In this document: piece by piece, positions 28,198 to 45,674 of the stretch | Layout of the letters: each line of letters starts with the position of its first letter | Numbering within the stretch: position 1 is the first letter of the stretch | NCBI GenBank assembly: GCA_965215505.1 | Contig: OZ244065.1 | Coordinates: forward strand, 5,792,001 to 5,856,000 | From: Capsulimonadaceae bacterium | GTDB taxonomy: Bacteria; Armatimonadota; Armatimonadia; Armatimonadales; Capsulimonadaceae | Direction of reading: 5' to 3' | DNA: 64,000 nucleotides | Program-made: the position numbers and the translations under genes | Notes under the pieces: generated by a model | Told to the model about the DNA's origin: nothing | The model's input: only the letters and a program-made list of their open reading frames with translations | The model's database searches: none

Positions 28198-29634
28198 TTG
28201 CCGACAGCCGATAACAACCAAGCGAGCCTGCGTTTCCTGCCTAAAGTCCATGCCCTGCTTGGAACCGAGGCGGCGCGGGCGTTGCTGGCAGACCTGCCGC
28301 GCCCGGTCGTCCTGGACGAAGTGCGGGCGGAGGTAGACGCCCTGCGCCGGAAGGTCCTCGCGGGGCAGGCCACGCCGCCGTTCGATGAGGCGGACATCTT
28401 CGCGGCGATCCGGGAACGGCTGGCGGCGAACGATCTTCGGCGCTTGCAGCGGGTCATCAACGCCACGGGCATCGTCATCCACACCAACATGGGCCGCGCG
28501 CCCATGGCCGAGGCGGCGGTGAAGGCGGTGGCGAGCGCCGCCCGCAACTACTCAAATCTGGAACTAGATCTGGCGACCGGCAAGCGCGGCGGGCGGGGCG
28601 GGCAGATCGGCGACTTGCTGCAACGCCTGACAGGGGCGGAAGCGGCCCTCGTCGTCAACAACAATGCGGCGGCGGTGCTACTGGCCCTGACGGCGGCGGC
28701 GTCGGGCGGCGAGGTCGTCATCTCGCGCGGGGAGCTGGTAGAGATCGGCGGCGGCTTCCGCGTCCCGGACGTCATCGCGCAGAGCGGGGCGCGGCTGGTG
28801 GAGGTCGGGACGACCAACAAGACGCGGATCGGGGACTACAAGCAGGCGATCACGGCGGACACGAAGGTCTTGCTGAAGGTCCACGCCAGCAACTATCGGA
28901 TTGTCGGCTTCACGCAGGAGGCATCGCTGCCGGAGCTAGTGGCGCTGGGCCGGGAACACGGGCTGCTGGTCATGAACGACCTGGGCAGCGGCGCATTGAT
29001 AGACGTGACGCGCTACGGCCTGCCCTATGAGCCGACCGTCGCGGAGACGATCAGGGCGGGCGTGGACATGGCGATGGTCAGCGGCGACAAGCTGCTGGGC
29101 GGGCCGCAGTGCGGCATACTCTTGGGCCGCGCCGCGCCAATCGCACGCATGGCCTCGCACCCGCTGTTCCGTGCCTTGCGGGCAGACAAGCTGACGCTGG
29201 CGGCGTTAGAGGCAACGCTGAGGCTCTATGAGGATGAAGAGCGTCTGACCGAGACGGTTCCCGTCCTGCACATGCTCTCGCGGAGCAAAGAGGAACTGAC
29301 GCGCCGCGCCCGTCGCCTGCGGAACGCCCTCGCCAAGATGTCCGGCCTGGAAACGCGCCTGACAGACGGCGTCGGCTACACTGGCGGCGGCGCATTGCCG
29401 ACGGTCCCGCTGCCGACGAAGCTGGTGCAGGTGCGGGCCGAGGCGATGAGCGTGGAAGAACTGGCCTCGGCACTGCGTCGGCACGACCCGCCCGTCATGG
29501 GGATGCTGGCCGACGGCTGGCTCGCCCTCGACGTGCGGACGGTGCGTGAAGACGAGATGCGGGAGCTTATCCAGGCGGTCCGAGACGTCACGGGGAACCA
29601 GCCTAACCACCTGGCGGTTGAAGCGGCAGAATGA
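28198..29634 (+). CDS. selA: L-seryl-tRNA(Sec) selenium transferase SelA
   Basis: VINATGIVIHTNMGRAP, ELVEIGGGFR, EVGTTN and SGDKLLGGPQ motifs. Start uncertain; TTG at 28198 chosen. Confidence 0.93.
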   Translation: MPTADNNQASLRFLPKVHALLGTEAARALLADLPRPVVLDEVRAEVDALRRKVLAGQATPPFDEADIFAAIRERLAANDLRRLQRVINATGIVIHTNMGRAPMAEAAVKAVASAARNYSNLELDLATGKRGGRGGQIGDLLQRLTGAEAALVVNNNAAAVLLALTAAASGGEVVISRGELVEIGGGFRVPDVIAQSGARLVEVGTTNKTRIGDYKQAITADTKVLLKVHASNYRIVGFTQEASLPELVALGREHGLLVMNDLGSGALIDVTRYGLPYEPTVAETIRAGVDMAMVSGDKLLGGPQCGILLGRAAPIARMASHPLFRALRADKLTLAALEATLRLYEDEERLTETVPVLHMLSRSKEELTRRARRLRNALAKMSGLETRLTDGVGYTGGGALPTVPLPTKLVQVRAEAMSVEELASALRRHDPPVMGMLADGWLALDVRTVREDEMRELIQAVRDVTGNQPNHLAVEAAE

Positions 29635-31526
29635 AGCACATCACGGTCGGCGTTGCGGGCCACATCGACCACGGCAAGACGGCCCTCGTCCGCGCCCTGA
29701 CGGGGACGGAGACGGACCGGCTCAAGGAGGAGCGGGAGCGGGGCATGTCCATCGTGCTCGGCTTCGCGCATCTGGCGCTGCCGGGGGGAGAGGTGGATCT
29801 GATTGACGTGCCCGGTCACGAGCGGTTCGTCAAGACGATGATCGCTGGGGCGACCGGGATTGACGCGGCCCTGCTGGTGGTCGCGGCCAACGAGCGCGTC
29901 AAGCCGCAGACCGTGGAACACGTCGCCCTGATGGGGCTGCTGGGCGTCGAGAGGGGCTTGGTCGTCGTGTCCAAGTGTGACCTGGTGCCGGACGAGGACG
30001 AGCGGGCGCTGGTTGCGGAAGAACTGGGCGAGTTCCTGCACGGTACGTTCCTGCGCGATGCGCCGTTGCTGTTCGCCTCGGCGATTACCGGCGAGGGGCT
30101 GGACGGGATCACGGCGGCATTCGAAGACCTGCTGGCCCAGGCCGAATCGCCGCGCCAGCAGCCGTACTTCACGCTGCCCGTAGACCGGGCGTTTACGATC
30201 ACCGGGCAGGGGACCATCGTCACGGGCACATTGCGGCGCGGGCCGGTGCGGGTGGGGCAGACGGTGGAGATCTGGCCGGGCGGGCTGAGAGCTGAGGTGC
30301 GGGGCCTGGAAGTCCACGGGCGGGCGGTCACGACCGCGCCGCCCGGCTGGCGCACAGCGGTCAACCTGCGCGGGGTCAAGAAGGACGACATCACGCACGG
30401 CGACACGCTGGCGACCGTCGGCGCGTTGCGCCCGACCCGGTTGCTGGACGCCGAGCTGACGTTGCTGTCTTCCGCCGACAAGCCGGTCAAGCGCGGTCAG
30501 GCCGTCGTCCTGCACTTCGGGACGAGCGAGCTGACGGTGCGCGTCTATCCGCTGGGGCGGCCGGAGATCGAAGCGGGGGCCACGGCGTTCGTTCAGTTCC
30601 GGCTGGCCGCAGACGCCGTTGTTCCGACGGGTGAGCCGTTCGTTATCCGCGCGCCCTCGCCGGTCGAGACGGTCGGCGGGGGACGGATCGTAGACCCATG
30701 CCCGGTCAAGCATACGCACGTTGATGAGGCCGTTCTGCGCGCGGTGCAGGTGCTGGCACACGGCACCCCGGAGGAGCGGCTGCGCGAGAAGCTGCGCGCG
30801 GCGGGGCCGGAAGGGCGCGACGCACGGCAGATCGCGCTCGATATAGGTATCGCCCCCGAAGCGCTGACGCCCGCCCTGCCCGCCGTGTTCTGTTCGGGCG
30901 GCCTGGTGCTTGACCCGGACGTGTTCAGCGTATTGCGGGGGCAGACGCAGGCTCTTATCGCACAGTTCCACGCCGCCCACCCGACGCGGCGGGGGATGCC
31001 GCAGGAGGAGCTGCGCCGCCGCCTGCCGCGCGCTCTGAGACCGGCGGCTTTCCACCATCTGCTGGAAGACCTGACGGCATCCGGTACGCTCCAGACTCTG
31101 GATGGACTCGTGCGGCAGGCGGGCTACTCGCCCGAGGCCGCGCTGTCCGCCGTCGAGCGCGGCATCGCCCAGGAGATCGAGGCCGAGTTCCGGGCGGGCG
31201 GCCTGAAGCCGCCCGACATGGACGCCATCCTGAAGAGCGACCGGCGGCGCAAGAGCCTGTACCACTTCTTAGTCGAGGCGGGTGCCCTGGTCCCGACGAC
31301 GGAGCGTAGCTCCAACAAGACGGTCGTGTTCCACCGAGACGCGCTGGCCGAGGCCGAGCGTCTCCTGCGCGATGCGCTCTCGGGGGGCGAGGGGCAGACA
31401 GTTTCTCAGCTCAACGTCGCGCTGGGCACGACGCGGAAGTTCTCGATTCCCTTGCTGGAACACATGGATAGCCTCGGCGTGACGAAACGCACGGGCGACG
31501 TCCGCCTCTGGAACGGGAGGGGGTGA
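29631..31526 (+). CDS. selB: Selenocysteine-specific elongation factor SelB
   Basis: GHIDHGKT, DVPGHE and SKCD GTPase motifs; C-terminal LGTTRKFSIPLLEHMD winged helix. Confidence 0.95.
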   Translation: MKHITVGVAGHIDHGKTALVRALTGTETDRLKEERERGMSIVLGFAHLALPGGEVDLIDVPGHERFVKTMIAGATGIDAALLVVAANERVKPQTVEHVALMGLLGVERGLVVVSKCDLVPDEDERALVAEELGEFLHGTFLRDAPLLFASAITGEGLDGITAAFEDLLAQAESPRQQPYFTLPVDRAFTITGQGTIVTGTLRRGPVRVGQTVEIWPGGLRAEVRGLEVHGRAVTTAPPGWRTAVNLRGVKKDDITHGDTLATVGALRPTRLLDAELTLLSSADKPVKRGQAVVLHFGTSELTVRVYPLGRPEIEAGATAFVQFRLAADAVVPTGEPFVIRAPSPVETVGGGRIVDPCPVKHTHVDEAVLRAVQVLAHGTPEERLREKLRAAGPEGRDARQIALDIGIAPEALTPALPAVFCSGGLVLDPDVFSVLRGQTQALIAQFHAAHPTRRGMPQEELRRRLPRALRPAAFHHLLEDLTASGTLQTLDGLVRQAGYSPEAALSAVERGIAQEIEAEFRAGGLKPPDMDAILKSDRRRKSLYHFLVEAGALVPTTERSSNKTVVFHRDALAEAERLLRDALSGGEGQTVSQLNVALGTTRKFSIPLLEHMDSLGVTKRTGDVRLWNGRG

Positions 31527-31533
31527 TGACGCG

Positions 31534-32580
31534 ATGGCAGACGAGAAGCTGCGCCTGACGGAGATGGCCTCCTCGGCGGGTTGAGCGGCGAAGCTTGGTC
31601 CGGGGGACCTGAACGCCGCAGTGAAAGATTTGTTCGTTGACGTGCCGCGTGACCCGAACGTCCTGGTGGGCTTCGGCACGCTGGACGACGCCGGCGTCTA
31701 CCGCCTGAGCGAGCATCAAGCCCTCGTGCAGACGGTGGACTTCATCACGCCGGTCGTGGACGATCCTTACGCCTACGGCGAGATCGCCGTGGCGAACGCG
31801 CTTTCGGACGTCTACGCCATGGGCGGCCTGCCGCTGACGGCCCTGAACGTCGCCTGCTTCCCGTCCGGCCTGGACCCTGAAATACTGAACGGCATCCTGC
31901 GCGGCGGCCTATCGAAGTGCCTGGAAGCGGGCGTTGCGCTGATGGGCGGGCACACGGTTGATGACCCGGAGATCAAGTTCGGCCTGTCCGTGACGGGGAT
32001 GGTAGACCCGGCGCACGTTTGGACCAATGCGGGCGCGCGGGTGGGGGACTCCTTGATCCTGACCAAGCCGCTCGGCGTCGGCGCAATCACGACCGGTATC
32101 AAGCAAGGCGTCGCGCCTGCCGACGCCGTGGAAGCCGCCTTGACGTCAATGCGGACGCTCAACCGGGCCGCGCGGGACGTCGTGGCGACGGTCGGCCCGC
32201 GCGCCTGCACGGACGTAACCGGGTTCAGCCTGCTCGGCCATTTGTACCAGATGCTCCGTGCGTCGGGCGTATCGGCCCGCGTCCATGCCAGCCAAGTGCC
32301 ATTCCTGACTGGTGCGCTGGATTTGGCGCGTCAGGGCGTCAGTCCGGGCGGGGCGGGGCGAAACCGGGACTACTTCGCCGCGCACGTCACGGTCGCGGAG
32401 GGTATTGAGGGGGCCATCGTGTCGCTGCTGTACGACCCGCAGACGTCGGGCGGTTTGCTGGTTTCGGTGGCGGGGGATAAGAAGAATGTTCTACTCGCCG
32501 CGCTGACGGCGGCGGGCCTCTCGGCGGCCCATGTCGGGGACGTGACGGAGCCGTCTGCGGGCCGCGTTTTCGTAATATAG
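31534..32580 (+). CDS. selD: Selenide, water dikinase SelD (selenoprotein, Sec17)
   Basis: MADEKLRLTEMASSAG-TGA(31582-31584)-AAKLGP continues in frame into DDAGVY, QTVDF and DPQTSGGLL. Confidence 0.93.
31585..31619 (+). promoter_or_regulatory. Bacterial SECIS-like hairpin in selD
   Basis: GCGGCG..GGTCC-GGG-GGACC..CGCCGC directly 3' of the UGA. Confidence 0.7.
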
Positions 32581-32582
32581 AT

Positions 32583-32675
32583 GGAGGCGTTTGGGGTCTG
32601 GTGGCCCTCCTGGTCTTCAAAACCAGTGACCCGCATCACGCGGGTGGTGGGTTCGATTCCCATCCGCTTCCGCCA
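32583..32675 (+). tRNA. selC: tRNA-Sec (anticodon UCA)
   Basis: 6-bp D stem, CTGGT-CTTCAAA-ACCAG anticodon arm (TCA at 32617-32619), long variable arm, GGTTCGATTCC T loop, encoded GCCA end. Confidence 0.95.
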
Positions 32676-32681
32676 AACAAT

Positions 32682-33545
32682 ATGCTCCCCGAAAACACAC
32701 AACAGTCTGGTACCGTCAAGACGATGCCCGTCGCGCGGCTGCGCGACGGGCATCTGGCTGAGGTTGATGACACGCTCGTCGTCGAGGAGCCGCTGGAGAT
32801 TCGTCTGGGGATGGAGCGGTTCACGGTCACTATGCGGACGCCGGGCAATGACTTCGCGCTGACGCGCGGCCTGCTGCTGACCGAGGGCGTGATCGGCTGC
32901 GAAGCCGACATCGGCCAGATCCGCTACTGCGATACGGGCGAGGCGGCGGACACGGACATTCCCAACATCGTCACCGTACAGCTCAAGACGCCGCCGCTGT
33001 CCGAGAAGCTCTGGCAAAGGACTTTGATGGCGGGGACGAGCTGCGGCCTATGCGGCAAGGCGGCCTTAGAGGCCGTCGGGATGCAGACGTGCCCGCTGCC
33101 GCCTCCTACTCTGCCCATGTTGAGCCGCGAGACACTGCTGTCGCTGCCGCATACACTGCGGCGTCATCAGGCGCTTTTCAAGCAAACGGGGGGCCTGCAC
33201 GCGGTCGGCCTGTTCGACGCAACGGGGGATTGCCGGTGCGTCTTTGAAGACATCGGACGGCACAACGCTACCGACAAGGCCATCGGCTTCGGTGTGGAGC
33301 AGGGCTGGCTTCCTTGGGAGGGTGCCGAGCCACTGATCCTGCTGGTCAGCGGCCGGGCCTCGTTCGAGATCACGCAGAAGGCGCTCATGGCCCGCATCTC
33401 CGTCGTCTGCTCCGTCTCCGCCGCCTCCACGCTGGCGGTGGAACTGGCCCAGGCCAACAACCAGACGCTGGTCGGCTTCCTGCGCGACACGGGCATGACG
33501 GTCTACACGGGCGGCAAACGGCTATCCCTCGCGCCCGATGCCTAA
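32682..33545 (+). CDS. fdhD: Formate dehydrogenase accessory sulfurtransferase FdhD
   Basis: VEEPLEI, TMRTPG, SCGLCG, TGGLH and EDIGRHNA motifs. Confidence 0.93.
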
Positions 33546-34103
33546 CGCATCGGCGACGCGGTTGATGTAGTTGAACCAGGACGTGATGAGTGTAATCTGC
33601 AAGATGCCCTGGTCATCGAAGCCCACGGCGTGCAGGCGCGCGTGGTCGTCGGGGCTGACCTTCGTGGCGTCCTTCGTGACCTTGACGACGTAGTCCAGCA
33701 TCACCCGGTCCTGCTCGCTGATGGGTGCGGTTCTATAATCCTGGCGCAGTGCTTCCACGAAGCCGTCATCCAGGGTGACTCGACGCAGAAACTCTGCGTG
33801 CGAAACCGTTCAATAGAAACACCGGTTGGTGACGGAGACGGTCGTGGTGATCATCTCCTGCTGCCGCCGCGTCAGCGGCAGGTCCGGGGACATCAGCGCG
33901 CCGAAGGTGGAGAAGGCGTGAAAAAGGGCGTCCGGGATGAGCGTGTGTGACGCGACGATGTTGGGCATGTCCGTCCGCCCCGCCTCGTCCGTCCCCTCGA
34001 CGGGCGTGGCGTACTCGGCGGGATAAAGCTCCCGCTGCTTGCCCATCAGCTCCCCCAGCCGCTCGTCGGCTTCGGACATCGGGACCGTTTTGATCCAGGC
34101 CAT
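33522..34103 (-). CDS. AhpD/carboxymuconolactone-decarboxylase-family peroxidase-related selenoprotein (CxxU)
   Basis: ORFs 33810..34133 and 33522..33758 join in frame across TGA 33812-33810: [18 protein letters not shown]...[13 protein letters not shown]. Confidence 0.85.
33779..33803 (-). promoter_or_regulatory. SECIS-like hairpin in the AhpD-like gene
   Basis: Minus-strand TCG-C-ACGCAGA-GTT-TCTGCGT-CGA; loop begins 17 nt after the UGA. Confidence 0.7.
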
Positions 34104-34131
34104 GTGGTGTTCCTTCCGTTTAACGTACTCC

Positions 34132-34160
34132 ATCCTATCATAAGCAGGCGTTTACGTCAA
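34132..34160 (-). promoter_or_regulatory. Sigma70-type promoter for the AhpD-like gene
   Basis: TTGACG-N17-TAGGAT with extended TG; supports ATG 34103 as the start. Confidence 0.55.
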
Positions 34161-34251
34161 GCATTGCAGCGGGAGTGGAGCGATCCTCTGCTGGGTCCGG
34201 GCCTGACGAACGGGGACGGACAACAAAAGGGCCTTTCGCATCACGCCAAGT

Positions 34252-36336
34252 TCAGAGGAGGTGGCGGCTCAGAAACCGCTCGTAAAGCCCGCAGCGCGGC
34301 GCGGCTTCGCGCGGCGTGTTGCCGGTCACGACGCCCGCCGTCCGCAAGCGGAAGAATCTGTCCGGTTCCGGCGGCTTCCGGTCCCGCAGCAGGCCGCGCA
34401 GGCTTTCGGTCATCTGCGGATCCTGGGTGACGGAGATCAGCAAACGCCGCAGATGATCGCCGAATATCCCTTCATCCCGGTCCGCCCCCGCCTCCAGCGC
34501 GGCAAAGTCGAGGCCGGCCATGGCCATCTCGTTCAGGCCGCAGGCGCAAAGGGCAGGCTGTCCGCCGGTCAACGCCTGGAAGCCGGACAATTCCCGTGCG
34601 TTTCGGAGCGGGCTGCCGTGCCGTCGGTTCAGGTCCGCCACCTGGTCCGCCGTGAAGTCCAGCAGGAAGAGGCGCGTCCCCACGTTGAACGGGGATTGGT
34701 TGAGGTCCGAGATGAACAGGTGTGCCTCGGTGGCATAGGCGATGACAAGGGTGAGGCGGCTCCACGGGTCTGCCGGAACGAGGGTCCTGCGGTTGTGCCA
34801 GGAGCGGAAGAGGCCGAACACGTCGCTGCCGTAACCGCAGTGGAACAGGCGATCCACTTCGTCCAGACCCCAGACCAGCGGCGCGTCCAGCCGCTCCAGG
34901 ACTTCCCGGCGAAGGAACCGCTCGAAGTTCATGTTCGGACTCCGATACTCGCTCCAGGAAGCCGGGTCGTAATCCAGGCCGATCTCGTCGGCGATCATCA
35001 CGGTCAGACACCGGTAAAACGACTCCGGCGAGTGAAGGTATTCCGCGTTGAAGGTCTGCAAGTCCGTCAGGATAGTCCGGACCCCGGCGGCTCGGGCTTG
35101 GTGCAGCCCTCGCGCCAGCATCGAAGTCTTGCCGATCTGCCGGGAGCCTTTGAGCAGCACGATGCCATCCCGGCGGGCGATGGCCGCCCGGAGATCGTCG
35201 TCGGCGTCCCGGACGACATAGAAGGCAGAGTCGAGGGGGACGGCACCGCCGGCAGACCCGTGCCGCGGCGGGGCGGAAGGCTCCGGTTCGGGCGGCTTCT
35301 TCATTGCGGCATCAAGTTCTTTCAGCGCAGCGTCCAGGTCCGCCACGAGCCGCACATCGTCCTCGGGGCCGTTCCAGGCGATATACATCAGCGGATCAAG
35401 GATCGCGCCCAGCGATTGTGGCAAGGCTTCCGTGAAGGCGACGCGCACCGGCAGCAGGCGCGGCCGTCCTCCTCTTGCCCAGAGGGCGGCGTGGGCCGTT
35501 TGGACCTCGAACTCGAACATCTCACTGCGGACGGATGCTTCCGAAACGAGCACGATCACGGCCTGGGCGGATTGGATCTGCCTCTTGATCTCCGCCGCCC
35601 ACTCGACCCCGATCGCGATGTGCCGGTCGATGAACAGCGAATGGCCGTGGGCGCTCAGCTTGGAATCGAGAAGGGCCACGACCCCCGCATCCGGCGCGGC
35701 ATGACGCTTGTACAAGATGGCCACGCGCCCCGGCTCCGGCCCATCCTCTGCCACGACTTGCGGGACAAGTCTGTCCGGCAGACCGGTCTTACCAACGTCC
35801 GGCGTGTGGAAGTTGAACAGGCGCACCGTCGTCCCATGCTTGACCTCATACTCGCCTAGATAGGATAAAAAAGCGGCCCAGTTCTCATATTCGCTGATGA
35901 CGTCGGCGAAGCTATGGGACATGAGGATGTGGCCCGCATCTCCGAAGCCCATCACGCGCTCCGCGAGATTGATTCCGCTGCCGGAAACATTATCCTGTCC
36001 ATGAATGTCCGGCTGTCGGGTGACAGGGCCGCTGTGCAGTCCCATCCGCAGGGGCAGGTCCGGGCGCGTCCGCAGAGCGAGGGCGACTTCGCAGGCGCAC
36101 TGGAGCGGGGCGCGTGGGTCACGGAAGAAGATCAGCGCCAGGCCGTCCCCCTGGTCGCGGCAGATCAGGTCCCCCTCTCCCTCAGCGCGCCGGTATTCGG
36201 GGGTCTGCTGCACCCTCTCCCGGAGGCCCTGGACCTGCCGTGCCTGTGCCTCCATGGGCAGCCGGGAGTGGCCGACCAGGTCCATGAAAAGAACGTGGGC
36301 CATCTCCGTCGGGATTCGTGTCGGTTCGTCCGTCAT
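34252..36336 (-). CDS. Class III adenylate/guanylate cyclase - TIR - AAA_35 (STAND-like) ATPase fusion
   Basis: Cyclase: LFMDLVGHS, QGDG, LRMGLHSGPV, GINLAERV. TIR: FIDRHIAIGVEW...SEMFEFEV. ATPase: GSRQIGKTS, WGLDEVD, SPFNVG, TGGQP. Confidence 0.85.
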   Translation of the reverse strand: MTDEPTRIPTEMAHVLFMDLVGHSRLPMEAQARQVQGLRERVQQTPEYRRAEGEGDLICRDQGDGLALIFFRDPRAPLQCACEVALALRTRPDLPLRMGLHSGPVTRQPDIHGQDNVSGSGINLAERVMGFGDAGHILMSHSFADVISEYENWAAFLSYLGEYEVKHGTTVRLFNFHTPDVGKTGLPDRLVPQVVAEDGPEPGRVAILYKRHAAPDAGVVALLDSKLSAHGHSLFIDRHIAIGVEWAAEIKRQIQSAQAVIVLVSEASVRSEMFEFEVQTAHAALWARGGRPRLLPVRVAFTEALPQSLGAILDPLMYIAWNGPEDDVRLVADLDAALKELDAAMKKPPEPEPSAPPRHGSAGGAVPLDSAFYVVRDADDDLRAAIARRDGIVLLKGSRQIGKTSMLARGLHQARAAGVRTILTDLQTFNAEYLHSPESFYRCLTVMIADEIGLDYDPASWSEYRSPNMNFERFLRREVLERLDAPLVWGLDEVDRLFHCGYGSDVFGLFRSWHNRRTLVPADPWSRLTLVIAYATEAHLFISDLNQSPFNVGTRLFLLDFTADQVADLNRRHGSPLRNARELSGFQALTGGQPALCACGLNEMAMAGLDFAALEAGADRDEGIFGDHLRRLLISVTQDPQMTESLRGLLRDRKPPEPDRFFRLRTAGVVTGNTPREAAPRCGLYERFLSRHLL

Positions 36337-38804
36337 TATCGCTTTTCGCTTTTGTGTGTAGGAAGAAGGTGTCCGAAGACGAGATCACCTGGCGAAGATG
36401 TGTTCACGTCTCCGGGTCTGATCGGCTGACCATGATCATCCCGACCATCGGGTCCGACACTGTAGAGCAGATAAGTATCTCCTATTGTGGTGTAGTGAAG
36501 AGGGGCACTCCAGACGGACTCGTCGTCGCTGTCAAAAGGATCATCGGGCAGGATCTTGAGGTAGGTTGGCTTAAGCTGGTAGAGGGTTTTCGGGTAGTGG
36601 CCTGATGCAAGGCGGTATGCTCTGAGTGCGGCAGCCATTAGAAGGAGCCTTGTCCTAGTCTCACTCGCCGTGTCAATTAGCCATAAAAAGCTTAGGGGGA
36701 GCGTGAAGCCGCTGCTGATCATACCGCCGGGTGCATCAGGTACAGTCACCTCCTTCCGCAAGGTAGAGCCATATTGGTTTTTGCGCGTCAGTTCAATGCA
36801 AGCGTCAGCATATTGTGTAACCTCTGCCATTGCAGCCCGCTTGCTGCTCGTCATGAGTTCCATCCTCACGCCCACTCGCACCCAGACGAAGGGTTCTGTA
36901 TCTTTGGGAAGTGTGGCGGACAATCCGGAATTTTCGTCCCATTTCCATTGATTCTCCCAGTGCCTCCTATAATAAGTGTCCCGCCAATGTGGACTGTCAA
37001 ACAGTGCCATAAGATCGCTCTCTGTCTGCCATTTGTCCTCTCGCAGGGTTTCCCAGAAGGGGAATCTTGTCTGAAAAAGAGATGTGAGGCGACCGGTCAC
37101 GGCGTTAGCCTGGGAGATGCTGAGGTGGCTAATGGTCTTCTCCAGCGCGCGCTGCCCGATTGCTTCAAAGGCCACTCCGATCTCCCGATTTACGAGGGGG
37201 CCATTTTCCATGACACGCTCACCGAGGGCAATGGCATCCAGGTCGCTCTGGGCGGCGGCCCCCCAGTCTCCACGGGAAATCCTTACTTGTCCTTCCAATA
37301 CCAGTAATCTAGCAAGTGAACGGTAGTCGGCCACAGCACTGTCCCACGCCATGTGTCGGAACCCGTGTACCAGCCCGAGACGCAGCCAATGCAGGGCTGC
37401 CGCATTACGCTGGACCATGTCAGCCTTGTCCTGCGGCGCTATGGGTTCGTCAGCCCCGGCGTAAGCCTCGTCGACTTCGGTCGCACTGGTAAGCGACCGC
37501 ATGGCATTTTCAAAGTCGTCATAGGCGTTTGGGACTGGAGCGGTGCGTTTTGGAATCGTAACGACCGGGTCACGATCAAGCCAGGCACCGCCGCCGAACC
37601 AAACGGTGCCGAGAAGCAGCACGGTAACCGCCAGGGTCCGCGAGACGCCTTTCCAGAAGGCGACTCGCTGCCGGCGCAGTTCCGCCCCCGGCATGACCGA
37701 TCTGATCCAGGCCCGGTCGAAGACGCGGGCGTAGATGCGGTTGCGGACCCGAAGGCATCCGGCCTCATCGCCTGCGATGCCGGACAGCCGCAGAAGACCT
37801 GCGCGCGGGTCGGCCTCGGCGCAGAGGATGCGCCGCCGGGAATACCGAAGGCGGCGATAGAAGTCCAGCAGGCCGGCCAGGTCCGTGTCACTCTCCAGCA
37901 GTCGGCGGCGGACGAATGCCAGATTGCCGTCCTGCTCCGGCGACTCCTGCGTGAAGAACAATGACCGGCACAGGCGGTCCACGTTCGGAGCCGCCCCCGC
38001 CGCCACGGCCTCACAGAGCCGCTGCGTGAGGTACGGGTGTCCCCCCGTCCAATACAGAACGCGCCGCAGCCGTCGGCTCCCCGTGCGCCGGTCCCGGCCC
38101 AGGCCGGCGGCGAGAGGAGCGGCTTCGTCGGCGGAAAAGTCTGTCAGCTCGATGCGCCGGCCGATGTTGAATGGCGTCGTTTTCGTGTCCTCAACGAGTT
38201 CCGCCGGCGAGGCCACACCCAGCATGCAGAACGTCAGGCGCGCGAGAGACGGGTCATGCGCCCGCTGATTGAAAAAGGCACGGACGGCGGCGAAGAACTC
38301 ATCGGTGGAGAAAGGCAGCGAGCGGACGGCATCTATCTCATCCACGAAGATGACGAGCGGGGAACTACAATCAGGGAGGACGACTTTGCGGATCACCAGC
38401 TCAAACCCCTGGAGGGGACCCCGCTGCCGGTTCCGATCCCAAAACCCCTCGATCTCGTCTTCCAGTCCCAACTGCTCGCCGAGCATGCTCACGAGGCCTT
38501 CGTACCACTGCGCGATGCTCACCTGCCGCCCGACGGTCGTCAGGTCCAGGATGGCCACACGCACCCCGGCTTCCTCAAGCCGCGCCTTCGTGCGGACCAT
38601 CAGCGAAGACTTGCCGACCTGCCGCGTGTCCAGGATATAGCAGAACTCACCCCGAAGGAGCGTCTGTAACAGGACGTCGTCCGCCTGCCGCTCGACGTAG
38701 GAGGGTGCGCCCGGATGGAGTGTCCCGCCGGAGACGAAAAAGGGGCCGGCGTTCTGGAATGGCTGCGAAAGAGAAGGGACCCCGGAATCTGTACTGGTAG
38801 GCAT
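36336..38804 (-). CDS. AAA_35 ATPase - transmembrane helix - extracytoplasmic domain with GspG-like C-terminal motif
   Basis: SYVERQAD, TRQVGKSS, IFVDEID, TPFNIG and TGGHPYL; TM helix TLAVTVLLLGTVWFGGGAWL; C-terminal AYRLASGHYPKTL..LPDDPF..LYSVGPDGRDD. Confidence 0.8.
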   Translation of the reverse strand: MPTSTDSGVPSLSQPFQNAGPFFVSGGTLHPGAPSYVERQADDVLLQTLLRGEFCYILDTRQVGKSSLMVRTKARLEEAGVRVAILDLTTVGRQVSIAQWYEGLVSMLGEQLGLEDEIEGFWDRNRQRGPLQGFELVIRKVVLPDCSSPLVIFVDEIDAVRSLPFSTDEFFAAVRAFFNQRAHDPSLARLTFCMLGVASPAELVEDTKTTPFNIGRRIELTDFSADEAAPLAAGLGRDRRTGSRRLRRVLYWTGGHPYLTQRLCEAVAAGAAPNVDRLCRSLFFTQESPEQDGNLAFVRRRLLESDTDLAGLLDFYRRLRYSRRRILCAEADPRAGLLRLSGIAGDEAGCLRVRNRIYARVFDRAWIRSVMPGAELRRQRVAFWKGVSRTLAVTVLLLGTVWFGGGAWLDRDPVVTIPKRTAPVPNAYDDFENAMRSLTSATEVDEAYAGADEPIAPQDKADMVQRNAAALHWLRLGLVHGFRHMAWDSAVADYRSLARLLVLEGQVRISRGDWGAAAQSDLDAIALGERVMENGPLVNREIGVAFEAIGQRALEKTISHLSISQANAVTGRLTSLFQTRFPFWETLREDKWQTESDLMALFDSPHWRDTYYRRHWENQWKWDENSGLSATLPKDTEPFVWVRVGVRMELMTSSKRAAMAEVTQYADACIELTRKNQYGSTLRKEVTVPDAPGGMISSGFTLPLSFLWLIDTASETRTRLLLMAAALRAYRLASGHYPKTLYQLKPTYLKILPDDPFDSDDESVWSAPLHYTTIGDTYLLYSVGPDGRDDHGQPIRPGDVNTSSPGDLVFGHLLPTHKSEKR

Positions 38805-38945
38805 GGTTTCCCCGGCTGATGTTATAGGGTGATGATACGGGACGACGGCCTATGGCATTGAAGGCAGTATATCCGGGTAGTGTGACCACATTCGGCGGGG
38901 TTCGGTGTGACAAAAGACACACGCTACCCTAAGCAGGTGGTCACG

Positions 38946-40400
38946 CTAAGCCGGGTGTTTGAGATGGCTGAGTGCGGCCATCGCGGCGTAGTATCCCCCC
39001 ATGCCGTGGACGCCGCCGCCGGGCGGGGTGGCGGAGGAACACAGATACAGGCCGGGGACGGGCGTAGACCACGGCGTCCAGCGGGCGATGGGGCGGGTGA
39101 ACAATTGCCGCCAGTCCTGGATGCCGCCGTTGATGTCCCCGCCGATGTAGTTGGCGTTGTACCGCTCCATCGCCGACGGGCCGATGGTGTGCTTGGCGAG
39201 GATGCGGTCCCGGAAGCCCGGTGCGAACCTCTCGATCTGCGCCTCGATGCGGCCCGTCATGTCCACGGTGCAGCCGTTAGGGACGTGGCAGTAGGCCCAA
39301 ACGGTGTGCTTGCCATCGGGGGCGCGGGTCGGGTCAAAGAGGCTCTGCTGGGCCAGCAGGATGTAGGGCACGTCCGCGACCTCGCCGCGCGCCGAGGCCC
39401 GCTCGGAGCGGCTGAGTTCGGCCCGCGTCGCGCCCAAATGCACGGTCCCCGCTGAGGTCACTTCGGGCGACTTCCAGGGGACCGGGCCGTCCAGGGCATA
39501 GTCCAGCTTGAACGCCCCCATGCCGTAGCGGTAGCGGCCCAGCCGCGTCCGGTAGCCGGTGGGCAGCTTGTCCCCGGCGATCTTGACGAGCTGGCGGGGC
39601 GTGATGTCGCCCATGATGACGCGCGACGGCGGCAGGTCATCCAGCGACTTCACCTCCCGCCCCGTTTCCACCTTGCCGCCCAACGATTCCAGGTGCGCGA
39701 CCAGGGCGTCAATGATCTTCTGGGACCCGCCGCGCGGGAACGGCCAGCCGACCGCGTGGCCGGCGATGCCCAGCGCCATGCCAAAGGCGGCGCTCGGCGA
39801 CTGTTCCAGGGGCAGCATCGAGTGGGCGGCCATGCCGGAGAAGAAGCCCCGCGCCCGGCCCCCCCGGAACGCGGCTTCGGTCAAGGCTTGCGAGGACAGA
39901 ATCGCCTTCAGGCCGAACCGCGCCAGGCCGAACGGGTAACACGCCAGCCGCAGCGGCTCGCGCAGCGCCCTGGAAGTCTCCTCCCAATCGGGCACGAGCG
40001 GCCCCATCAGGCGCGTGTAGTTGTCGGCGTCCGCCCCCAGCGTCGCCGCCGTCTCTTCCACCGACTGGTACAAGAGTGCGGGCGGCCCGTCGTCAAATGG
40101 GTGTGCCAGGGCGGCGGGCGGCTGTATCCACTCCAGCCCATGCTTTTCGAGCGGCAGCGTCCGAAAGAACGGCGACCCGTAGCCGAGCGGGTGGATGGCC
40201 GAGCAGATGTCGTGCGTGAAGCCAGGCAGCGTCAGCTCCGCCGACCGGCAGCCCCCGCCGGGGGTGTCCTTGGCCTCGACCACGAGGACGGAATGGCCCT
40301 CCTGCGCGAACCGGATGGCGGCGGCCAGCCCGTTCGGGCCGGAGCCGATGACGACGGCATCATAGTCTTGTGCTGATGAGCGAGCAGCAGATGGTGTCAT
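38946..40400 (-). CDS. Phytoene-desaturase-family NAD(P)/FAD-dependent oxidoreductase
   Basis: IGSGPNGLAAA, HDICSAIHP and TPPGGGVHGM motifs. Confidence 0.88.
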   Translation of the reverse strand: MTPSAARSSAQDYDAVVIGSGPNGLAAAIRFAQEGHSVLVVEAKDTPGGGCRSAELTLPGFTHDICSAIHPLGYGSPFFRTLPLEKHGLEWIQPPAALAHPFDDGPPALLYQSVEETAATLGADADNYTRLMGPLVPDWEETSRALREPLRLACYPFGLARFGLKAILSSQALTEAAFRGGRARGFFSGMAAHSMLPLEQSPSAAFGMALGIAGHAVGWPFPRGGSQKIIDALVAHLESLGGKVETGREVKSLDDLPPSRVIMGDITPRQLVKIAGDKLPTGYRTRLGRYRYGMGAFKLDYALDGPVPWKSPEVTSAGTVHLGATRAELSRSERASARGEVADVPYILLAQQSLFDPTRAPDGKHTVWAYCHVPNGCTVDMTGRIEAQIERFAPGFRDRILAKHTIGPSAMERYNANYIGGDINGGIQDWRQLFTRPIARWTPWSTPVPGLYLCSSATPPGGGVHGMGGYYAAMAALSHLKHPA

Positions 40401-40846
40401 GTCAAGTGTTCTAAATCGCTGAGGTCTTTCAGCCTGCCGCTGGCTTGCTTGTTGACCTTGAGGCTGTCCATGTCAATCACGTTTATGGGTACGCCGTCCA
40501 TAAGGATCACCTCGCGCTTCAGCCAGCAGTCAGTGAATTCTACGCCTGAGATGCTGGTAAGCAGTTCAATCCGCAATGGAGGGTTGCCCATGCGGATGAC
40601 ACGATCTGCCTGCAAAAATACCCCCACGGCGATATCGTCGCTTGAGAACCCGAAGCCGCGCAATGCAGCCGCCACTCCCTGTGCGTTGTCTTCGCTACGC
40701 GCTATCCAGATGTCCATGTCGCCCGTAGCACGGGGGTAGCCGTGGTGCCCGACCGCGTAGCCCCCGACCAGAAGATACTCAACGCCGTTCTCGTTCAACA
40801 ACTTCAAGAAATCTTTGAAGTCGGTCGGTAGAAGGATCGTAGCCAT
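40397..40846 (-). CDS. Nucleotidyltransferase-fold protein (DUF6036-like)
   Basis: VGGYAV..HGYPRATGDMDIW and K.ASGRLKDLSDL motifs. Confidence 0.8.
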   Translation of the reverse strand: MATILLPTDFKDFLKLLNENGVEYLLVGGYAVGHHGYPRATGDMDIWIARSEDNAQGVAAALRGFGFSSDDIAVGVFLQADRVIRMGNPPLRIELLTSISGVEFTDCWLKREVILMDGVPINVIDMDSLKVNKQASGRLKDLSDLEHLT

Positions 40847-40991
40847 ACATCACCTGCCGCATCAATTCGAGCGCTTCCAGCCTTGCCTGGGGAGACTGGG
40901 TTTTCCAGTAGTCCGCCTCATCTGACGGGTCATGGAGCGAAACGATGGACAGGCTCGACTTGTCCATCTTTAGAGTATCACGCAGAGACAT
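40779..40991 (-). CDS. Small (70 aa) partner of the nucleotidyltransferase
   Basis: MSLRDTLKMDK...DYWKTQSPQARLEALELMR; overlaps both neighbouring genes. Confidence 0.65.
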   Translation of the reverse strand: MSLRDTLKMDKSSLSIVSLHDPSDEADYWKTQSPQARLEALELMRQVMYGYDPSTDRLQRFLEVVERERR

Positions 40992-41589
40992 TTTTGTCCT
41001 CCCCGACTGCGCTGGGTTCGTCCAGGGAAACCTTGTCATAGACCTCCGATAGGGGCAGGGAGCAGCCGAGAGAGGGGAGGAACAGGCTGGCCGCCAGCCC
41101 CTCCACGGCCCTGAACTTCCAGGAACCATCGTCCTGCCGGACGTACTGCTCGACGCGCGCCTTGTTCTGGGAAACAAGGATGTACTCTTGCAGCGAGTCC
41201 AGCCGCCGATAGTGCGCCCACTTCTCGCCCCGGTCGTAGGCTTCCGTCGTGGGCGACAGCACCTCGAACAGCACCGTCGGGTTGATGATGCTGTTCTTGT
41301 CGAGCGGGTGCCGGTGCTGCTCCCCGCAGACGACCGACACGTCCGGGTGCGTCATCAGGCCCGACTGCATGATTGTCACGCGCAGGTCGCTGTTGAAGAC
41401 TTGGCACGGCTCGCGCTTGAGCAAGTTCCCCATCTCACGCCCTATGTTGTTACCGATGGCACTATGCTCAGGGCTGCCGCCTGCCATCGCGAAGATCTGG
41501 CCGGACAGGTATTCGCTCTTGAACTCGGAGGTTTTTTCCAGTTCTATGTACTGTTCAGGCGTGTAGAATGGAACGGGTTGGGCCGACAT
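40978..41589 (-). CDS. Uma2-family (PD-(D/E)xK) endonuclease-like protein
   Basis: MAGGSPEH, HPDVSVVC, EVLSPTTEAYDRGEK and QEYILVSQ motifs. Confidence 0.9.
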   Translation of the reverse strand: MSAQPVPFYTPEQYIELEKTSEFKSEYLSGQIFAMAGGSPEHSAIGNNIGREMGNLLKREPCQVFNSDLRVTIMQSGLMTHPDVSVVCGEQHRHPLDKNSIINPTVLFEVLSPTTEAYDRGEKWAHYRRLDSLQEYILVSQNKARVEQYVRQDDGSWKFRAVEGLAASLFLPSLGCSLPLSEVYDKVSLDEPSAVGEDKNVSA

Positions 41590-42299: not shown

Positions 42300-45200
42300 A
42301 TGTTCAAACTGCCACTCTTCTCGTCCAGCGGCGGCGATGGGAAGAAGCGCCAGGCCCAGCCGTTCAGCCGGATGACGCAGCACAAGGAGTCGCGGCTCGA
42401 AGGCGCGACCGTGACCGAGAGCGTCTGCCCCTACTGTGCGGTCGGGTGCGGCCAGCACATCTACACCAAGGGCGGCCAGATCATTGACATCGAGGGCAAC
42501 CCGCACTCGCCGATCAATGAGGGGACGCTATGCCCAAAGGGCGCGAACGTCTTCCAGCTCGCCCGCAACCCGCACCGGGTCAAGCATGTCCTGTATCGCG
42601 CGCCCTATGCGACCGAGTGGGAGCGGAAGCCGCTGGAGTGGGCGATGGAACGGATCGCGCAGAAAGTCCACGACGCCCGCGAACGTGGCTGGACCGAGAA
42701 GGACGACCAGGGCCAGACGATCAACGCCGTCCGCAACATCGGAACGCTGGGCGGCGCGACACTGGACAACGAAGAGAACTACCTGATCAAGAAGCTGTTC
42801 ACGGCGGGGCTGGGAGTGCTTTCCGTCGAGAATCAGGCGCGCATCTGACATTCTGCTTCCGTGCCCGGTCTGGGCGCGACATTCGGCCGCGGCGCGGCCA
42901 CACAATACCAGCAGGATCTCGCCAACAGCGACGCCATTCTCATCATGGGTTCCAACATGGCCGAGGCGCACCCGGTCGGCTTCCGCTGGCCGATGAAGGC
43001 CAAAGCCAAGGGCGGCAAGATCATCCATGTGGACCCCCGCTTCACGCGCACCTCGGCGATGGCCGACCTGCACGTCCAGATCCGGGCTGGCTCGGACATC
43101 GCGTTTTTGGGTGCGCTGGTCAACTACGTCTTGACCCAAGAGCGCTGGTTTAAAGAGTATGTGCTGGCATATTCCAACGCTTCCACGATCGTGGACGAAC
43201 GGTTCCAGGATACGGAGGCGCTGGACGGCCTGTTCAGCGGCTACGACCCGGAAACACGCTCCTACGACCCTTCCGAGGGCTACTGGAGTTACAAGCAGCC
43301 GGAGGGCGAAGACAAAGGCGATGGCGACGCTCGCGGCAAAATGTCCGGCAACTCGAACGGAGTCCACGGGCCGGGCATCCAGGGCGGGGCCAGTACGCAC
43401 AACTCCCCCCAGGGCCAGTCCACGGAGTCCAAGGCCGGGTACATCGAGCGCGACGAGACTTTGCAGGACCCGAACTGCGTCATGCAGCTTTTGCGCCGCC
43501 ACTTCGCGCGCTACACGCCTGAGATGGCCGCCGACATCTGCGGCTGCACCCCGGAGCAGGTCATCAAAGTCGCCGAAACCTTGTGCGACAATTCGGGCCG
43601 GGAGCGCACCAGCGCCCTCGTCTACGCGGTCGGCTGGACCATGCACACGACCGGCGTCCAGATCATCCGCACGGCCAGCATCCTCCAGACTTTGTTGGGG
43701 AACATGGGGCGGCCGGGAGGCGGCATCATGGCCCTGCGCGGCCACGCCAGCATCCAGGGATCTACGGACATCCCGACGCTCTACGATCTGCTGCCGGGTT
43801 ACCTGCCCCAGCCGACTTCCGAGCCGTCGCACGATACGCTGGACTCGTATGTGAAATACGAGGGCCTGCCGACCGGCTATTGGGCCAACTTCAAGGAGTT
43901 CATCGTCAGCCTGCTCAAAGCCTATTACGGTGAGGCGGCCACGAAGGCGAACGACTTCTGCTACAACTGGCTGCCGCGTCTCGACGACGACTACTCGATG
44001 ATCCTGGCCTTCCAGCGTATGGCGAAGGGCGACTTTGAGGGTTACTTCCTGTTCGGCCAGAACCCCGCCGCCGGGTCGGTCAACGCCAAGGTCGTCCGCG
44101 AAGGCTTGCGGAACCTGGACTGGCTCGTCGTCGCCGACTGGTTCGAGACGGAGAGCGCCGTCTTCTGGAAGAACGACCCGACCGGGCCGCCGCCTGAGCA
44201 AGTAGCGACCGAAGTGTTCTTCATCCCGGCGGCTTCATCCCCGGAGAAAGAGGGGACGCTGACCAACACGCAGCGGCTCATCCAATGGCACGACAAGGCT
44301 ATTGACCCGCCGGACGACTGCCGCTCGGACCTGTGGTTCCTGTACAACCTGGGCAAGCGACTAAAAAAGCTGTATGAAGGCTCGACGCAGTCGAAAGACC
44401 AGCCCCTCCTGCACCTGACCTGGGACTACGATTACGATGAGCATCCACTGCTGCCGGACGGCACGTCGAGCCGCATCGAGGGCGAGCCGGACGCCTTGAA
44501 AGTGCTTCAGGAGATCAATGGCTACCACACGACCGAGGTAGACCCGGAGACTGGCAAGTGGAAATTGCTGTCGGGCTTCTCGGACTGCAAGGATGACGGC
44601 ACGACGGCCTGCGGCGGCTGGATCTATTCCGGCGTCACGCCCGCGCCAAATGTCAACCGCGCCCGCGACCGGGTCCGCACGCCGGACAACCCGCTGGACC
44701 CCAAATGGGGCTACGCCTGGCCTCATAACCGGCGCGTCCTGTACAATCGGGCCAGCGCGGACCCCGAGGGTAACCCCTGGTCGGAGCGCAAGAAGCTGAT
44801 CTGGTGGGACAAGGCCGAGAAGAAGTGGACCGGCGACGACGAGCCGGACTTTGAGCCGGACAAGGACCCCGCCTACCGCGCCCCCAAAGACGCCGTTGGG
44901 ATGAAGGCCATTGACGGCGATGCGCCGTTCATCATGCACCCGGACGGCCTGGCCTGGCTGTTCGCGCCCGGCGGGACTAAGGATGCGCCGCTTCCGACCC
45001 ACTACGAGCCGGTCGAGTCGCCAGTCCGCAACCTGCTCTACAATGCGACGCAGGACAACCCGACGACGCGCTATTTCGCCGACCTGCCGGGGAACCAATT
45101 GGCGCGCTACCCGGAGGATGATTTCCCGGTCGTCGCCTGCACCTTCCGGCTGACGGAACACTACCTGAGCGGCCCGATGTCGCGGTTCAACTCGTGGCTG

Positions 45201-45674
45201 AACGAGCTGATGCCTTCCATGTTCATCGAGATCGGCCCGGAACTCGCCGCCGAGCATGGCATTTCGAACGGGGACTGGATGACCTGCGAGTCGAAGCGGG
45301 CGAAGATCGAGGCCCGCGCCCTGGTGACGCGGCGCACCAAGCCGATGGTCATTGACGGCAAGACGATCCACCAGGTCGGCATCCCGTTCCAGTGGGGCTT
45401 CGCGGGCGAGGTGGTCGGCAGCAGCGCCAACGACTTGACCTCGCTCGTCGCTGACCCGAACGTGACGATGCACGAGGCGAAGGTCTTCGCCTGCCGCGTC
45501 CGCGCGGGCCGGGCCGACGACCAGCCGCGCGAGCCGACGGCGAAGATGGAGCAATGGGCTAACCGTGAGCCGGTCCCGGACACGCCTGCGGGCGCACAGC
45601 CCGAGGGCCATTTGGGGAGGCACTTGCGTCAGGACGGGCCGACCATCGGCCCCGTAGAGAAGAAGCAACCATGA
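42300..45674 (+). CDS. Selenocysteine-containing formate dehydrogenase alpha subunit (Mo/W-bisPGD)
   Basis: CPYCAVGCG...LCPKG Fe-S motif; ENQARI-TGA(42846-42848)-HSASVPGL in frame; ALRGH. Joins ORFs 42300..42848 and 42861..45674. Confidence 0.93.
42861..42877 (+). promoter_or_regulatory. SECIS-like hairpin in fdh alpha
   Basis: GTGCCC-GGTCT-GGGCGC starting 12 nt after the UGA. Confidence 0.65.

Follow-up and report, generated by a model that had tools for sequence, protein, structure and literature searches.

Two overlapping genes of a Capsulimonadaceae bacterium, gene 1 and gene 2, encode proteins with AAA_35 ATPase domains of two subtypes, and the two-protein module that they represent recurs in several bacterial phyla and is conserved as a unit. 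The genes lie in the window analysed here, a stretch of 64,000 nucleotides (assembly GCA_965215505.1, contig OZ244065.1, positions 5,792,001 to 5,856,000 of the forward strand); coordinates are those of the window unless another locus is named. We tentatively interpret the pair as one functional unit, a split receptor that would resemble nucleotide-binding leucine-rich repeat (NLR) proteins and be formed by two paralogous AAA_35 NTPases akin to the STAND class (signal transduction ATPases with numerous domains), with a conflict setting as its most likely context. The binding of the two proteins to each other, their ligand, their products and their biological role are what we infer in this reading.

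The two AAA_35 domains of the pair belong to subtypes with opposite architecture. In the effector subtype (E type), to which gene 2 belongs, the effector domains are N-terminal and the ATPase comes last, the domain ending no more than 15 residues from the C-terminus in 145 of 149 representatives. In the sensor subtype (S type), represented by gene 1, the ATPase comes first and a sensor follows behind it: the ATPase begins no further than 40 aa from the N-terminus in 106 of 119 relatives listed, and 90 of the 119 have a hydrophobic segment after it. The domains beyond this segment vary and include WD40, TPR, PEGA, PD40, FGE-sulfatase and LolA-like modules. The E-type ATPase has a large family: of the clusters in a library built at 50% identity, 8293 match it at E <= 0.001 and 1428 still do so at E <= 1e-30. 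A deviating layout is seen in 13 of the 119 listed gene 1 relatives (693-1323 aa, most about 1300; P0126-P0133 and similar), in which 315-399 residues precede the S-type ATPase; where listed, they carry TPR and PD40 repeats after the ATPase and have no hydrophobic segment. These N-extended relatives may represent a form of the system that is soluble or fused.

The association of the two subtypes was surveyed in 151 genomes sampled across the phylum of the source organism, counting partners within 6 kb. E or S-like matches occur in 26 genomes; 31 of 54 E matches have an S-like match nearby and 32 of 52 S-like matches an E match, and one E match scored as lone was found to be paired on inspection. 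Among the genomes with an E match, G045 alone has no S-like row in the survey table. In 40 loci, which were selected for holding both subtypes, each ATPase could be assigned to E or S without ambiguity. S precedes E in 15 of them, E precedes S and abuts it in 23, and the two genes converge in two. Overlapping genes with E ahead of S also appear in the annotation of plasmids from two other phyla: AP024153.1 of an Abditibacteriota bacterium, where the pair lies between two xerC genes, and NZ_CP128401.1 of Ca. Chlorohelix. These plasmid pairs adjoin recombinase or transposase genes.

The two subtypes also diverge together. The distance matrices of the E and S proteins correlate with r 0.793, a value reached by none of 2000 global shuffles and by none of 2000 swaps of partners within genomes (mean 0.657, sd 0.048). 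Relatedness of the genomes inflates this correlation, and the within-genome control corrects for it only in part. The first-pass annotation of the window had named loss of the pair as a unit as a result that would speak against it; the subtypes are instead repeatedly adjacent and co-diverging.

In the window the genes are coupled by a TAATG overlap, as first annotated: the junction reads ...CGA TAA TG ACG..., in which the gene 1 stop codon and the gene 2 ATG have one A in common. GGGGA lies 5-9 nt upstream of the gene 1 ATG, and a promoter and terminator scan at the locus returned sites no more numerous than in shuffled sequence. The assignment of both genes to one ATPase family is borne out by AAA_35 (Pfam PF14516) matches above the cut-off of 27 bits in gene 1 (residues 27-268; 104.8 bits, E 5.2e-30) and gene 2 (residues 364-690; 230.2 bits, E 3.8e-68), and the Walker A and B motifs can be read in both translations (Table 1). 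The 6.18-Mb genome has no AAA_35 genes besides these two.

The closest full-length relative of gene 1 among the matches listed, P0122, shares 71% identity, residues 15-400 share 43-58% identity with 27 S-type genes of related genomes, and G64, K65, S67, E156 and D158 are invariant in 92 S-type sequences. A profile of the S type was uninformative against the Protein Data Bank (PDB), being swamped by the WD40 repeats of the relatives. The single membrane helix behind the ATPase (Kyte-Doolittle 1.75 over 19 aa) is preceded by RRQR..K..R and followed by DRD; basic residues before it and acidic residues after it are consistent with an ATPase inside and a C-terminus outside. This agrees with the annotated helix and extracytoplasmic domain of about 410 aa, for which we predict 413 residues.

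No Pfam family matches the outer domain at E <= 0.01. The domain reaches 15 bits against T2SSG (PF08334), under the cut-off of 21 bits, and gene 1 does not have the layout of a GspG pseudopilin, in that its hydrophobic helix is internal, behind the ATPase, and not part of an N-terminal prepilin motif. The structural model of the domain, with a mean predicted local distance difference test (pLDDT) of 87.7, comprises helical repeats and, after them, one long helix and a small sheet. Foldseek returned no match in the PDB at E <= 0.001, and a wide VIA-align search reached at most Z 8.9, exclusively with generic or designed helical repeats and below the meaningful level for such repeats. Relatives of the domain, from Chthonomonadaceae, Capsulimonas and Armatimonas, are 450-530 aa long and have an N-terminal hydrophobic anchor. 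T2SSG matches are weak in several of them, and one stand-alone relative, P0255, scores above the cut-off (29 bits).

Two stand-alone paralogues of the outer domain (446 and 496 aa) stand in tandem elsewhere in the same genome (L124:3203-6118, minus strand), downstream of a 187-aa open reading frame (ORF) for which no family was found and of a sigma-70-type gene. The N-terminal C..C motifs of such stand-alone relatives gave rise to the idea that they are anti-sigma factors, which was rejected, as neither zf-HC2 nor any other N-terminal Pfam family was found in 10 of them.

Gene 2 begins with a domain that, on profile and model evidence, is a genuine class III nucleotidyl cyclase despite its sub-threshold Pfam score (Guanylate_cyc, PF00211: partial match at residues 91-168, 17.4 bits, E 0.0036, cut-off 21.9 bits). 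A profile of 73 homologues retrieves the solved class III cyclases 3mr7 (6.7e-13), Rv1900c (4.7e-11) and Ma1120 (4.8e-10). The AlphaFold2 model of residues 1-200 (pLDDT 92.6) has 188 Foldseek matches in the PDB at E <= 0.001, the best of which is the cyclase domain of Rv1900c (1ybt; E 1.6e-11, TM 0.70/0.80). Relatives of gene 2 are numerous (1009 with E <= 0.001 among 8000 candidates scored), and conservation was read from a set of 106 sequences, consisting of gene 2 and 105 homologues of 650-770 aa from 119 non-self proteins listed. D19 (105 of 106) and D64 (all 106), which we take to be the metal-binding aspartates, and N123 (103) and R127 (106), presumably the transition-state asparagine and arginine, are invariant or nearly so. 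Both metal aspartates and the N-x3-R motif had been annotated and are upheld by profile, model and conservation; judged by these residues, the cyclase looks active.

The positions that specify the base are non-canonical. The canonical pairs are Lys/Asp for ATP and a Glu/Cys-type pair for GTP; aligned to Ma1120 and Rv1900c, gene 2 has R60 at the Lys site and N116 at the Asp site and thus neither pair, so that the base of the product is not predictable from sequence. The two residues had been read correctly in the first-pass annotation, but as a family trait only the second holds: N116 is retained in at least 90% of 73 sequences, and the R60 site is Leu in 73 and Arg in 7 of the 106 sequences, so that arginine is peculiar to this protein. 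The same genome also encodes a 922-aa cyclase-NB-ARC-TPR protein (L125:1245-4013, minus strand) whose cyclase shares 51% identity with the gene 2 cyclase, and thus carries the same output module on two NTPase families.

The TIR domain that follows is well above the Pfam cut-off of 28 bits (TIR_2, PF13676: residues 212-323, 61.1 bits, E 1.9e-16). Detection of solved relatives required a profile: the single gene 2 TIR sequence had no match in the PDB, and a TIR-only profile matched 6wt6 (4.9e-6), 7uxr (5.9e-6) and the SARM1 TIR (8e-5). The second glutamate of the EFEV motif, E277, aligns with the glutamate of the W..(F/Y)E motif in these three chains and is invariant (106 of 106), consistent with its annotation as the likely catalytic residue. 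We presume that it is the catalytic TIR glutamate, and NADase-type catalysis is accordingly a prediction from sequence. The Walker A (GK[ST]) and Walker B (hhhhDE.D) motifs of the E-type ATPase are likewise conserved across the 106 sequences. This part of the 73-homologue profile has no solved relative at E <= 0.01. With respect to the STAND clade, Pfam gave no NACHT or NB-ARC match and weak AAA_16 and AAA_22 matches; neighbours in a protein atlas include clusters with 13-17% nSTAND1-bearing members, which is a lead only.

A multimer prediction, which had been proposed as a check, was run on the ATPase modules (residues 1-385 of the S protein and 345-694 of the E protein). It scored 0.60 against 0.00 for the best control, with at least 69% of contacts agreeing between runs and a partner pLDDT of at least 81. 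In the calibration of this score 58 of 80 solved complexes and 2 of 110 mismatched pairs attained the mark; among those that did so, only 7 of the solved complexes, but both mismatches, had a score of 0.60 or under. The prediction is above its control and lends weak support to an association of the S and E modules, but the pass may reflect likeness alone, because both chains are paralogous oligomerising NTPases.

In the split receptor that we tentatively prefer, gene 1 would be the sensor, with its ATPase in the cytoplasm, one helix across the membrane and the domain of helical repeats with a pseudopilin-like end facing outwards. Gene 2, which has no sensor domain and carries cyclase and TIR ahead of its own AAA_35 module, would be the effector. 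A ligand or a disturbance of the envelope would alter the nucleotide state of the sensor ATPase, which would then recruit or nucleate oligomers of the effector ATPase. Proximity in the oligomer would pair the cyclase domains, class III cyclases being active only as dimers, and would pack the TIR domains into an NAD+-cleaving assembly, the output being a cyclic nucleotide and/or NAD+ breakdown. Both heads are of kinds that require oligomerisation for activity. The role of such a receptor would most likely be a response to conflict or threat, similar to abortive infection; this is the least secure step of the interpretation.

The pair has an accessory character. Of 23 other genomes of the genus searched, one has a full-length gene 2 homologue, and the slot that holds the pair measures 5.46 kb here, with the same flanks 0.6 and 1.8 kb apart in two genomes of the genus. 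The locus is near-identical in sequencing runs of several studies. Within the two genes, contigs of four coded runs show 36 variable sites. The variants of gene 1 (16 synonymous, 6 non-synonymous) give a ratio of non-synonymous to synonymous polymorphism (pN/pS) of 0.13, and those of gene 2 include no stop and no frameshift.

Several observations weigh against the split receptor in a conflict setting. E-type heads other than TIR and cyclase (BTAD, kinase, OmpR-type) are typical outputs of signalling, not killing effectors. No S-like match lies within 6 kb of 23 of the 54 E matches in the survey, although this is an upper bound on unpaired E genes because some sit at contig ends. Among 16 informative loci with the cyclase-TIR-AAA_35 architecture (two further ones are cut by contig ends and stand outside this number), nine have an adjacent S gene (the window, L003, L061, L064-L067, G036:C581 and G038:C70) and seven have no S-type gene in 6-8 kb per side (L001, L056, L058, L059, L060, L062 and L063). 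Constraint on gene 2 appears weaker than on gene 1, its 5 synonymous and 9 non-synonymous variants giving a pN/pS of 0.61, albeit from few sites. In run X7 (one contig, depth 8) gene 1 has a 2-nt insertion after 36610, which together with an A>C change at codon 732 would put the last 90 codons out of frame and reflects either strain variation or misassembly. Finally, the pair matches no system in PADLOC. Of the first-pass interpretation, the parts that stand are that the architecture is not a named system and that its catalytic residues and the unit are conserved. The seven lone loci speak against an obligate pair.

Defence and ordinary signalling are close rivals as roles of the pair. The same two-protein receptor might serve housekeeping signal transduction, in which the outer domain senses a cue, the cyclase makes a messenger and the TIR acts as a module for oligomerisation or regulation; we regard this as somewhat unlikely. 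The evidence from the heads points both ways. Among 74 of the 149 E-type representatives, whose N-terminal heads were scanned, TIR_2 was found in 42, BTAD in 22, Guanylate_cyc in 9, protein kinase in 6 and an OmpR-type domain in 5. The SARP (BTAD), kinase and OmpR heads favour signalling, as do the periplasmic-type sensor domains of the S proteins (PEGA, PD40, LolA-like); against this, the rank of TIR as the commonest partner domain and its invariant glutamate argue for an enzymatic use of the TIR.

The distribution is similarly divided. Several genomes hold many pairs, as is known from two-component systems, and in one genome of the same genus a single S gene stands between a SARP-AAA_35 gene and a cyclase-TIR-AAA_35 gene, which suggests that one sensor may serve two effectors. 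The same cyclase subtype is also present on TPR, PD40, kinase and NB-ARC-TPR proteins, and the missing PADLOC match fits ordinary signalling as well. On the other side, a housekeeping function sits poorly with the patchy occurrence in the genus, the variable slot and the plasmid, recombinase and transposase contexts. This mobile and patchy distribution, together with the invariant TIR chemistry, favours a conflict role. Fusions of cyclases with STAND NTPases are moreover placed in a predicted immune clade in the accessible part of a recent preprint (bioRxiv 10.64898/2026.08.12.744502).

It is unlikely that gene 2 is a self-sufficient receptor, with gene 1 as a modulator that it can do without or as an unconnected neighbour from the same family. 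The seven loci without an adjacent S gene agree with this explanation, and a beta-propeller protein without ATPase beside two of them (L058, L062) suggests other routes of sensing. However, E-type proteins end in their ATPase and have no sensor domain (the 145 of 149 representatives mentioned above), and a single E-bearing survey genome lacks an S-like row. The partner-specific co-divergence, the stop/start overlap here and in the two plasmid records, and a genome with exactly one E and one S gene likewise speak for joint function. That the pair is a decaying, functionless remnant of a transferred element is highly improbable, for although the variable slot, an adjacent 107-aa ORF with a sub-threshold partial match to the CMD (carboxymuconolactone decarboxylase) profile, the insertion in one run and the higher pN/pS of gene 2 could be read in this way, the frames are intact over 822 and 694 codons, all catalytic motifs are preserved, gene 1 has a pN/pS of 0.13 and the near-identical stretch is present in runs of several studies.

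Several known systems resemble the pair, and no named system fits it. PADLOC models give weak single-domain matches in gene 2 (Aga_TIR 3.6e-6; SAVED_TIR 5.8e-5, residues 204-295; PDC-S01 3.2e-4; ThsB 0.062), no family matches gene 1, and NCBIfam has nothing above its cut-offs for the pair. For Thoeris, that ThsB value stands alone, as no ThsA match was obtained and Pfam shows no SIR2 or Macro domain in five flanking ORFs; for CBASS, neither protein has a CD-NTase match and SAVED_TIR matches in the TIR sub-domain only. Pycsar and Pucsar likewise combine a cyclase and a TIR domain of NADase type within one system, but there cyclase and effector (TIR or membrane) are separate and linked by a diffusible cyclic nucleoside monophosphate (cNMP), whereas here both are fused to the ATPase. 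By Pfam, neither the two genes of the pair nor five ORFs next to them encode a cNMP-binding domain, the same proteins include no effector with three membrane helices, and no Pycsar model of PADLOC matched.

The Avs, bNACHT and TIR-STAND proteins share the logic of effector, NTPase and sensor, including a TIR effector that is switched on by oligomerisation, but each of them is one cytoplasmic polypeptide and detects phage proteins within the cell; here effector and sensor are on two proteins. AfsR is a one-chain SARP-STAND-TPR regulator with an NTPase of NB-ARC type. It resembles the E type in having SARP/BTAD or winged helix-turn-helix heads on an NTPase and differs from the present pair, which has enzymatic heads and a pseudopilin-like outer domain. 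By analogy rather than by membership, the E/S pair most plausibly works like the sensor/helper pairs of NLRs, reportedly found as NAIP-NLRC4 and as paired and NRC-type NLRs of plants. In both cases there are two paralogous NTPases with the sensor on one and the effector on the other, and adjacent, co-evolving genes; the NTPase family is different, and the sensor predicted here crosses the membrane and faces outwards.

The pair was not found in the literature searched by family and domain names, a search that did not extend to supplementary tables. The term 'AAA_35' does not occur in the searched text of PMC7159879 and PMC13581612, which includes the main text of a 2026 Nature survey of bacterial STANDs. 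The nearest description is the predicted 'immune clade 1' of Chakravarti et al. (bioRxiv 10.64898/2026.08.12.744502), which unites cyclases fused to STAND NTPases and, as far as the accessible part of that preprint goes, agrees with gene 2 in placing a class III cyclase N-terminal to an oligomerising NTPase. The fusions named in that part are with NACHT and AP-ATPase domains, not AAA_35, and it mentions neither a TIR between cyclase and NTPase nor a separate membrane sensor.

The coordinates of the pair and its slot are given in Table 1.

Table 1. Features of the E/S gene pair in the window (aa, amino acids; minus, reverse strand).
Feature	Coordinates	Strand	Basis
Gene 1, S-type (sensor) protein	36336..38804	-	822 aa; intact ORF, AAA_35 E 5.2e-30
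S-subtype AAA_35 NTPase, predicted cytoplasmic, gene 1 residues 1-385	37650..38804	-	Walker A RQVGKSS, Walker B IFVDEID
Single membrane helix (predicted), gene 1 residues about 387-409	37578..37646	-	Hydropathy
Predicted extracytoplasmic domain, gene 1 residues 410-822	36339..37577	-	Helical repeats, then pseudopilin-like end
TAATG stop/start overlap of gene 1 and gene 2	36334..36338	-	Direct sequence reading
Gene 2, E-type (effector) protein	34252..36336	-	694 aa; intact ORF
Class III nucleotidyl cyclase domain, gene 2 residues 1-190	35767..36336	-	Profile, model, Foldseek
TIR domain, gene 2 residues about 205-325, invariant E277	35362..35724	-	TIR_2 E 1.9e-16
E-subtype AAA_35 NTPase, gene 2 residues 364-690	34267..35247	-	Walker A RQIGKTS, Walker B GLDEVD
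Variable slot with the pair, fdhD to FAD oxidoreductase gene	33512..38970	.	Flank synteny

The CMD-like ORF of 107 aa lies within this slot (33810-34133, minus strand), and its sub-threshold match covers the first 40 positions of the profile. It ends approximately where we take the Cys motif of the CMD family to be, and may therefore be a gene truncated at the edge of the insertion. In one of the two relatives with a shorter slot (L089:1141-2337), the slot is occupied by an ORF of 128 aa, whose N-terminus is of prepilin type (GFTLIELLIV...), and by one of 236 aa that is transposase-like by eye only.

A selenium locus extends on both sides of the pair (29631-33545 and 42300-45674), with selB-like and selD-like ORFs, fdhD, a tRNA-SeC at 32583-32675 and a formate dehydrogenase in which an in-frame TGA at 42846-42848 links the two ORFs (...ENQARIUHSASV..., TGA=U). 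Between the oxidoreductase and the formate dehydrogenase, the region 40397-41589 (minus strand) holds small accessory genes: a DUF2204 nucleotidyltransferase-like ORF of 149 aa (sub-threshold match), a small ORF immediately upstream of it and a Uma2-family endonuclease gene (E 7.5e-33), the last of which is present in both syntenic relatives.

A wider claim, which we hold to be rather unlikely at present, is that AAA_35 E/S pairs in general are NLR-like receptors made of two proteins and spanning the membrane, a large class not yet described, in which an outward sensor would nucleate polymers of a TIR/cyclase helper from the outside in. The pseudopilin-like domain might then report phage attack on, or a disturbance of, pilus or secretion machinery, and the class could be seen as a bacterial counterpart, by analogy, of NAIP-NLRC4 or of the sensor/helper NLRs of plants. 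The bacterial NLR-like (STAND) immune proteins consist, to our knowledge, of one cytoplasmic chain each and recognise phage proteins once the phage has entered. If the split system is true, it would add a transmembrane sensor ATPase with a separate effector ATPase, and sensing at the envelope, to prokaryotic signalling or immunity. The E-type family is large, as its 1428 clusters at the stricter threshold indicate, and its heads are modular, with TIR, cyclase, kinase and SARP domains; gene 2, in which a cyclase with non-canonical base-specifying positions is fused to a TIR, is therefore a candidate source of new nucleotide signals.

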